DNA from: Escherichia coli | GTDB taxonomy: Bacteria; Pseudomonadota; Gammaproteobacteria; Enterobacterales; Enterobacteriaceae | Length of the DNA: 64,000 bases | Direction: 5' to 3' (one strand) | Assembly (NCBI RefSeq): GCF_044647545.1 | Contig: NZ_CP172818.1 | Part shown: piece after piece, positions 32,182 to 32,224 of the stretch | How the letters are laid out: every line of letters starts with the position of its first letter | Numbering within the stretch: the stretch's first letter is position 1 | Made by a program: the position numbers and the translations under genes | Notes under the pieces: generated by a model | What the model was told of the DNA's origin: nothing | Databases searched by the model: none | The model's input: the letters and a program-made list of their open reading frames with translations, nothing else

Positions 32182-32224
32182 AAAAAAAAAAAAAAAAAAA
32201 AAAAAAAAAAAAAAAAAAAAAAAA
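32182..32224 (+). repeat. 43-nt adenine homopolymer
   Basis: Counted directly: uninterrupted A run from 32182 to 32224. Confidence 0.95.

Follow-up and report, generated by a model that had tools for sequence, protein, structure and literature searches.

The 43-nt poly(A) run downstream of metL in an Escherichia coli record is probably a reference-dependent, A-biased assembly artefact

The 43 consecutive A's found just past metL belong to a 996-nt anomalous stretch (32159-33154) of the window, by which we mean the whole 64,000-nt stretch of DNA that was analysed. Judging from the sequence, the A-run and the garbled stretch around it are probably a reference-dependent, A-biased consensus or assembly artefact and not a property of the organism. 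The garbling is base-specific, is unique to this record among the genomes searched, and coincides exactly with places where ST648-type E. coli and K-12 differ in structure. The type of pipeline (read polishing of a reference backbone, polishing with homologues and a naive consensus of insertions are examples) and its default to A are inferred from this pattern.

The A-run is present in the record and is far beyond chance. It occupies exactly positions 32182-32224 on the plus strand, starting 24 nt past the metL stop codon, with the metF start 1,080 nt further downstream; the original prediction of an uninterrupted 43-nt poly(A) immediately after metL was therefore exact, although the wider anomalous stretch had been missed. 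Reading through the locus, the end of metL (TTGTTGTAA) with its TAA stop (32155-32157) is followed by TTTCAGTACTCTAAAATGCCCGGT, the A-run, and then TACGCATG. At the base composition of the window (23.8% A), about 8e-23 runs of 43 or more A's are expected in 64 kb. The longest other homopolymer in the window is 8 nt, setting aside 9-11-nt A-runs within the garbled 32159-33154. The literature on homopolymer limits and polishing artefacts offered nothing specific enough to serve as a maximum tract length for E. coli, so we took the window and its closest relative as the empirical baseline.

All 64 kb were compared with the main relative, ST648-type E. coli FDAARGOS_497 (NZ_CP033850.1). Window positions 1-27291 contain one SNP relative to this genome, positions 27299-32158 (~4.9 kb up to metL) contain 0 differences, and positions 56993-58580 and 60959-64000 match at 100%. 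Within 33155-57092, the differences consist only of four localised anomalies at structural breakpoints. The genes on either side of the garbled stretch are intact on the plus strand: metL (29725-32157, 810 aa, from the ORF list) is identical to that of ST648-type relatives through 32158, and metF (33305-34195, 296 aa) is likewise identical to the relatives. The interval between them is 1,147 nt in the window, compared with 3,161 nt in ST648-type relatives and a 348-nt spacer in K-12-type genomes.

We mapped all points at which collinearity is lost between the ST648-type relative and K-12 MG1655. Exactly five such breakpoints lie to the right of metL, and they are the window's five anomalies, to the base: NZ_CP033850.1 1709024-1712035 corresponds to window 32159-33154, 1717343-1717523 to 38465-38621, 1728049 to 49149, 1732946 to 54042, and 1737488-1740302 to 58581-60958. 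Two breakpoints lie to the left of metL. One is an Rhs element site, where the window has a K-12-type empty site; the other, in the yiiX-metJ spacer, is clean, being a pure deletion in ST648 of a K-12 REP cluster and the one breakpoint in seven without an anomaly. Altogether, the 64 kb contain six anomalies, every one at a K-12/ST648 structural breakpoint, while ~57 kb of collinear sequence that is 2-3% diverged from K-12 carries one SNP relative to the ST648-type genome. The junctions combine K-12-type structure with ST648-type bases, as at the left edge of the garbled stretch, where TAAT/TTCAG (the slash marks the junction) is followed by an island 21-mer and then AATGCCCGGTA. A bacterium cannot know where its own genome leaves the K-12 layout; a layout-dependent reconstruction procedure does.

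The near-identical ST648-type relatives all carry an intact 3.2-kb island between metL and metF, comprising a hypothetical gene and a gene for an UshA-like 5'-nucleotidase. Roughly one in three complete E. coli genomes carries the island. Its first gene, on the minus strand (L001 1185-2315), encodes the 376-aa hypothetical protein WP_000105527.1 and overlaps the end of metL by 37 nt at its 3' end; the second encodes a 517-aa UshA-like metallophosphatase/5'-nucleotidase. WP_000105527.1 has only sub-threshold matches, to an IS1/IS1595 N-terminal zinc-binding domain and to an IS1 family transposase model, both at residues 74-122. We also considered the island as a defence system and rejected this idea: PADLOC gave no match to the island genes, whose products are the UshA-like nucleotidase and the hypothetical protein, the latter with an IS1-type zinc ribbon below threshold.

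The garbled metL-metF stretch can be read, on the plus strand, as a succession of pieces. Its left edge (32159-32181) has the K-12-type junction TAAT/TTCAG and the K-12-type 11-mer AATGCCCGGTA, but in its bases it matches exactly a 21-mer that lies 396 nt into the island of the relatives (L001 1618-1638). The A-run follows at K-12 spacer position GGT/AC, where collinearity with the K-12-type layout ends. Next comes a garbled mosaic (32225-32296) that is closer to the K-12-type spacer (local score 42, z 8.5) than to the island (score 35, z 4.3). A recognisable fragment of the 5'-nucleotidase gene (32297-32384; L001 about 2998-3094, ~86% identity) contains the K-12-type 9-mer TACGACGAA in place of the island's TATCGATGAA. 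Beyond the fragment lies a 541-nt T-poor block (32385-32925) with 7 T's (1.3% T), 46% A and 34% G. The sequence just 3' of the nucleotidase gene (32926-33054) is ~90% identical to relatives, and a second, small patch of T drop-out (33055-33154) has lost 30% of its T's, with further T's replaced by A or G. From 33155, where the K-12-type and ST648-type sequences regain collinearity, identity is again 100%. As a separate observation, the 'empty' metL-metF spacer of K-12 (L002 469-560) itself seems to hold a short island relic, TTCAG...AATGCCCG, which matches the island interior (L001 1613-1640).

The T-poor block, which the original prediction passed over, is stranger than the A-run itself. By alignment, it is collinear with the last ~900 nt of the relatives' nucleotidase gene, from which 88% of T's, 44% of C's, 28% of G's and 17% of A's have been deleted. 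Since lenient global alignment of low-complexity sequence can mislead, T's were stripped from the true reference before alignment as a control. The block scored 178.5 against this T-less reference, compared with 20 +/- 19 (max 69.5) for 200 random genomic 901-mers from which T's had been removed likewise and 31 +/- 9 (max 56.5) for the shuffled T-less reference. Long stretches are exact apart from the missing T's, e.g., GCAACAAACGG-CGCGCAA-CGC versus GCAACAAACGGTCGCGCAATCGC. The match rate by codon position is 0.59/0.59/0.54, 18 of 143 indels are multiples of three, and 7 of 12 inserted bases are A. The block is open in all six frames simply for want of stop codons. In 68 kb of the closest relative, there is no 60-nt segment in which any base occurs one time or fewer. 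This block cannot be the evolutionary divergence of a gene, and its neutral decay is excluded because the flanks are error-free.

Two other loci in the window are garbled. The first is a patch in the yijF-gldA spacer (38465-38621), where every G is lost over ~30 nt and further deletions occur; it starts and ends exactly at K-12/ST648 divergence points. The second is a 2,378-nt block (58581-60958) between argH and oxyS/oxyR that replaces the relatives' 2,813-nt island of manD and an MFS-transporter gene, with both flanks 100% identical to relatives. Within this block, which has ~65% identity to relatives and 339 indel events, 85% of A's, 71% of C's, 54% of T's and 47% of G's are retained, and 102 of 229 inserted bases are A. 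Its longest open frame is 100 aa, compared with 430 aa in the relatives' version. The right junction is K-12-type in structure, with an exact 33 nt of the MFS gene joined to A8GCGG (GGCA/AAAAAAAGCGG). We also observed that TGGCTTATCGCCGGGC in a K-12 spacer (L014 4850-4870) matches the 3' end of the MFS gene, TGGCTTCCATCGCCGGGATT (L012 4181-4213), with z about 4. Together with the apparent relic in the metL-metF spacer, this suggests that the K-12-type 'empty' sites are deletion scars and not pristine insertion sites.

The garbled gene copies share further features. Match rates are flat across codon positions (0.71/0.68/0.72, 0.60/0.57/0.59 and 0.59/0.59/0.54), and ~85% of the indels are not multiples of three. 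In both large blocks, the substitutions are mostly to A and the inserted bases are mostly A.

The remaining anomalies are simpler. A 1-nt deletion in the yijO-eptC spacer (49149) and a 7-nt deletion in the ppc-argE spacer (54042) each fall exactly at a K-12/ST648 structural breakpoint; at these two breakpoints, K-12 carries different REP-type spacer DNA. Between rpmE and yiiX, all top-matching ST648 relatives carry a 7.4-kb Rhs block (RhsC, an RHS fragment and IS1), which is absent from the window. In its place is TGGTCGT (27292-27298), the natural empty-site sequence, so that the site has K-12-type structure within ST648-type flanks. The absence of the Rhs/IS1 block may reflect a repeat region that was collapsed or left out, or it may be genuine, and the Rhs-less empty site, the 1-nt deletion and the 7-nt deletion could each be a natural polymorphism.

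The garbled sequences were found in no other genome. Among 5,425 other complete E. coli genomes, the junction 77-mer at the left edge of the garbled stretch was not found (best 92.3% identity), and the T-poor block had no match. The yijF-gldA patch and the manD-island block were also not found in this set; their best matches, at just 92.4% and 64.8%, are the relatives' intact versions, and we rejected both as natural alleles. A junction 24-mer and a T-poor 22-mer had no matches in 100,044 species-representative genomes, and the A-run junction was not found in metagenome contigs.

Could the stretch instead be a real third allele, i.e., a naturally decayed remnant of the island with a genuine A-tract grown by slippage? 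The left edge does share deletion junctions with the natural K-12-type allele, and the Rhs-less empty site is natural, so the strain would not be structurally identical to ST648 references. However, no natural decay removes 88% of T's and leaves 83% of A's, and several hundred changes per kb beside zero-change flanks leave no time for neutral decay. There is also no seed A-run at the homologous site in K-12-type (GGTAC) or island-type alleles, the sequence is absent from the 5,425 genomes and the metagenomes, and two more loci in the window are garbled likewise. We therefore regard a third allele as very unlikely. Another way for the garbling to be real DNA would be a process that targets horizontally acquired, non-core segments, here the nucleotidase island, the manD/MFS island and a spacer element, and introduces base-specific deletions and A-rich filler, with the A-run at one boundary. 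If true, this would give bacteria a counterpart of repeat-induced or foreign-DNA-directed hypermutation, but we give the idea almost no credence.

The artefact reading would account for the window as follows. The source is an ST648-like E. coli, and the intact 3.2-kb island is most likely present in its true metL-metF interval. A backbone or homologues of the common K-12-type layout, which lacks the island, appear to have guided the assembly, scaffolding or polishing of its sequence. Collinear parts would have been corrected to the strain's true bases, whereas non-collinear DNA would either be missing (the Rhs/IS1 block; the island's first ~1.7 kb at metL-metF) or have been filled in on very little reliable information, with particular bases dropping out and A favoured. 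The A-run, at the end of collinearity (K-12 spacer GGT/AC), would then be the zero-information extreme of this A bias. The pattern is indeed confined to one record, has a non-biological error spectrum, and recurs at several sites tied to a technical variable.

Some observations run counter to this reading. The order of drop-out differs by block, with T lost most in the metL-metF stretch and G in the other two garbled regions, and we can assign the garbled signature to no particular platform or program. The clean yiiX-metJ breakpoint and the possibility of natural polymorphism at the Rhs site and the two small deletions also weigh against it. The backbone is also not K-12 itself base for base, as no K-12-type allele in the collection has the same edge sequences; read-based correction may explain this difference. 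We rejected a simple drop-out of the T channel on an ST648 template as the whole story, as the left edge and the other junctions copy K-12-type structure.

An artefact could also arise with no reference involved, if a coverage gap in a de novo or hybrid assembly was bridged by one or more junk or low-quality long reads, or by a poor finishing read, and left unpolished; in that case, the poly(A) would represent a part of the read with no signal or a stall. Base-specific drop-out and single-base runs resemble failed base-calling, and the garbling is patchy in otherwise perfect sequence. Such a bridge, however, leaves unexplained why the anomalies fall exactly at K-12/ST648 breakpoints, why the junctions are K-12-type in structure (TAAT/TTCAG, AATGCCCGGTA, TACGACGAA, GGCA/A8GCGG), and why a natural empty site stands in place of the Rhs element, and we consider it unlikely. 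An in-silico origin, from a generative or denoising sequence model or a lossy step that is faithful on common sequence and falls into A-rich low complexity at rarer accessory segments, is in our view quite improbable. Two-allele mosaic junctions, collapse to poly(A) and A/G-rich sequence, and subsequent re-locking are typical failure modes of such models, and the anomalies lie where common alleles branch from one another. Yet the lineage-specific SNPs are error-free over tens of kilobases at ~2-3% from K-12, which requires real data from the lineage, and there is no positive evidence of such a step. Both variants fit the breakpoint and junction evidence less well than the reference-dependent artefact, and under either one the tract is not real.

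Three origins were proposed for the A-tract in the original prediction: polyadenylated RNA that had been reverse-transcribed, a cloning construct, and an artefact of assembly. The last of these is the only one that the evidence supports. In the first, a polyadenylated nucleotidase transcript would have been copied by an error-prone reverse transcriptase and integrated beside metL, and a long A-tract does abut a degraded gene copy. The tail, however, has the wrong polarity: the A-run comes before the sense fragment and reads as a 3'-terminal T43 on the opposite strand, so it is neither transcript's tail. A repeat scan detected no target-site duplications or flanking direct repeats, there was no Rfam match at E up to 1, and the gene content, which includes no reverse transcriptase gene, is collinear with the annotated relative. 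The supposed inserted block is the resident island in place, with the fragment at the gene's own syntenic position beside its native 3' flank, and unrelated loci are garbled in the same way. Processed gene copies with poly(A) and retron- or DRT-type products resemble this locus in having an A-tract beside a degraded gene copy and differ from it in polarity, target-site duplication, reverse transcriptase, ncRNA and the position of the copy, which here is at its own locus. A retrocopy is extremely unlikely.

The second origin, an engineered insert such as a synthetic T-less cassette or a vector scar, has in its favour that T-free stretches and homopolymer linkers are in use in synthetic constructs. 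A plasmid search returned only two mislabelled chromosomes with the same island, a phage search was empty, and there was no vector similarity. Moreover, the T-poor block was not designed: it is the resident gene minus some of its bases. An engineered origin is scarcely credible.

The original prediction also raised the possibility of a hypermutable slippage site between metL and the metF promoter. The tract does resemble the contingency loci of Neisseria, Haemophilus, Campylobacter and Bordetella in being a long intergenic single-base run upstream of a gene, and it would be slippage-prone in principle. Real contingency tracts tend to be far shorter, are found again in other strains at varying lengths, and are located in promoters or in 5' coding regions. 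In contrast, the A-run lies 1,080 nt from metF and 24 nt past metL, inside garbled sequence, and is found in no other genome; related strains have no tract at homologous sites, and the run is in neither a promoter spacer nor the 5' part of an ORF. With the tract absent from the 5,425 genomes and from metagenome contigs, nothing suggests that such a site exists in cells. Diversity-generating retroelements also produce very high, sharply bounded mutation density. They do so by substitutions at template adenines, with no indels, and need a TR/VR pair and a reverse transcriptase; here, A is the best preserved base (83-85%), the changes are mainly deletions, and there is no TR or reverse transcriptase.

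The closest likeness is to known local consensus and assembly errors in 'complete' bacterial records, such as unpolished insertions, collapsed accessory DNA and reference bias. These share with the window the uniqueness to one record and the short patches in perfect sequence, as well as base-specific drop-outs, homopolymer runs, missing accessory or repeat DNA (here Rhs/IS1) and indifference to reading frame. What sets the present case apart from the usual errors is its severity, with 88% of one base lost over 541 nt and a 43-nt homopolymer, and its exact dependence on K-12-type collinearity.

For the biology of E. coli, the A-run carries no weight: the evidence points to neither a retrocopy nor an insertion at metL-metF, nor to an A-tract that is hypermutable. 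Its significance is for data quality. This record, which seems to be filed as a complete E. coli genome, contains at least three garbled regions in 64 kb; within that span, the metL-metF island is probably short by ~2 kb, and 7.4 kb of Rhs/IS1 DNA is probably missing. Because of these garbled and missing regions, accessory-gene content, pseudogene counts, and pan-genome or structural-variant calls made from this record will be wrong. The signature, perfect bases in collinear sequence combined with A-biased drop-out exactly at structural breakpoints, could be used to flag similar records.
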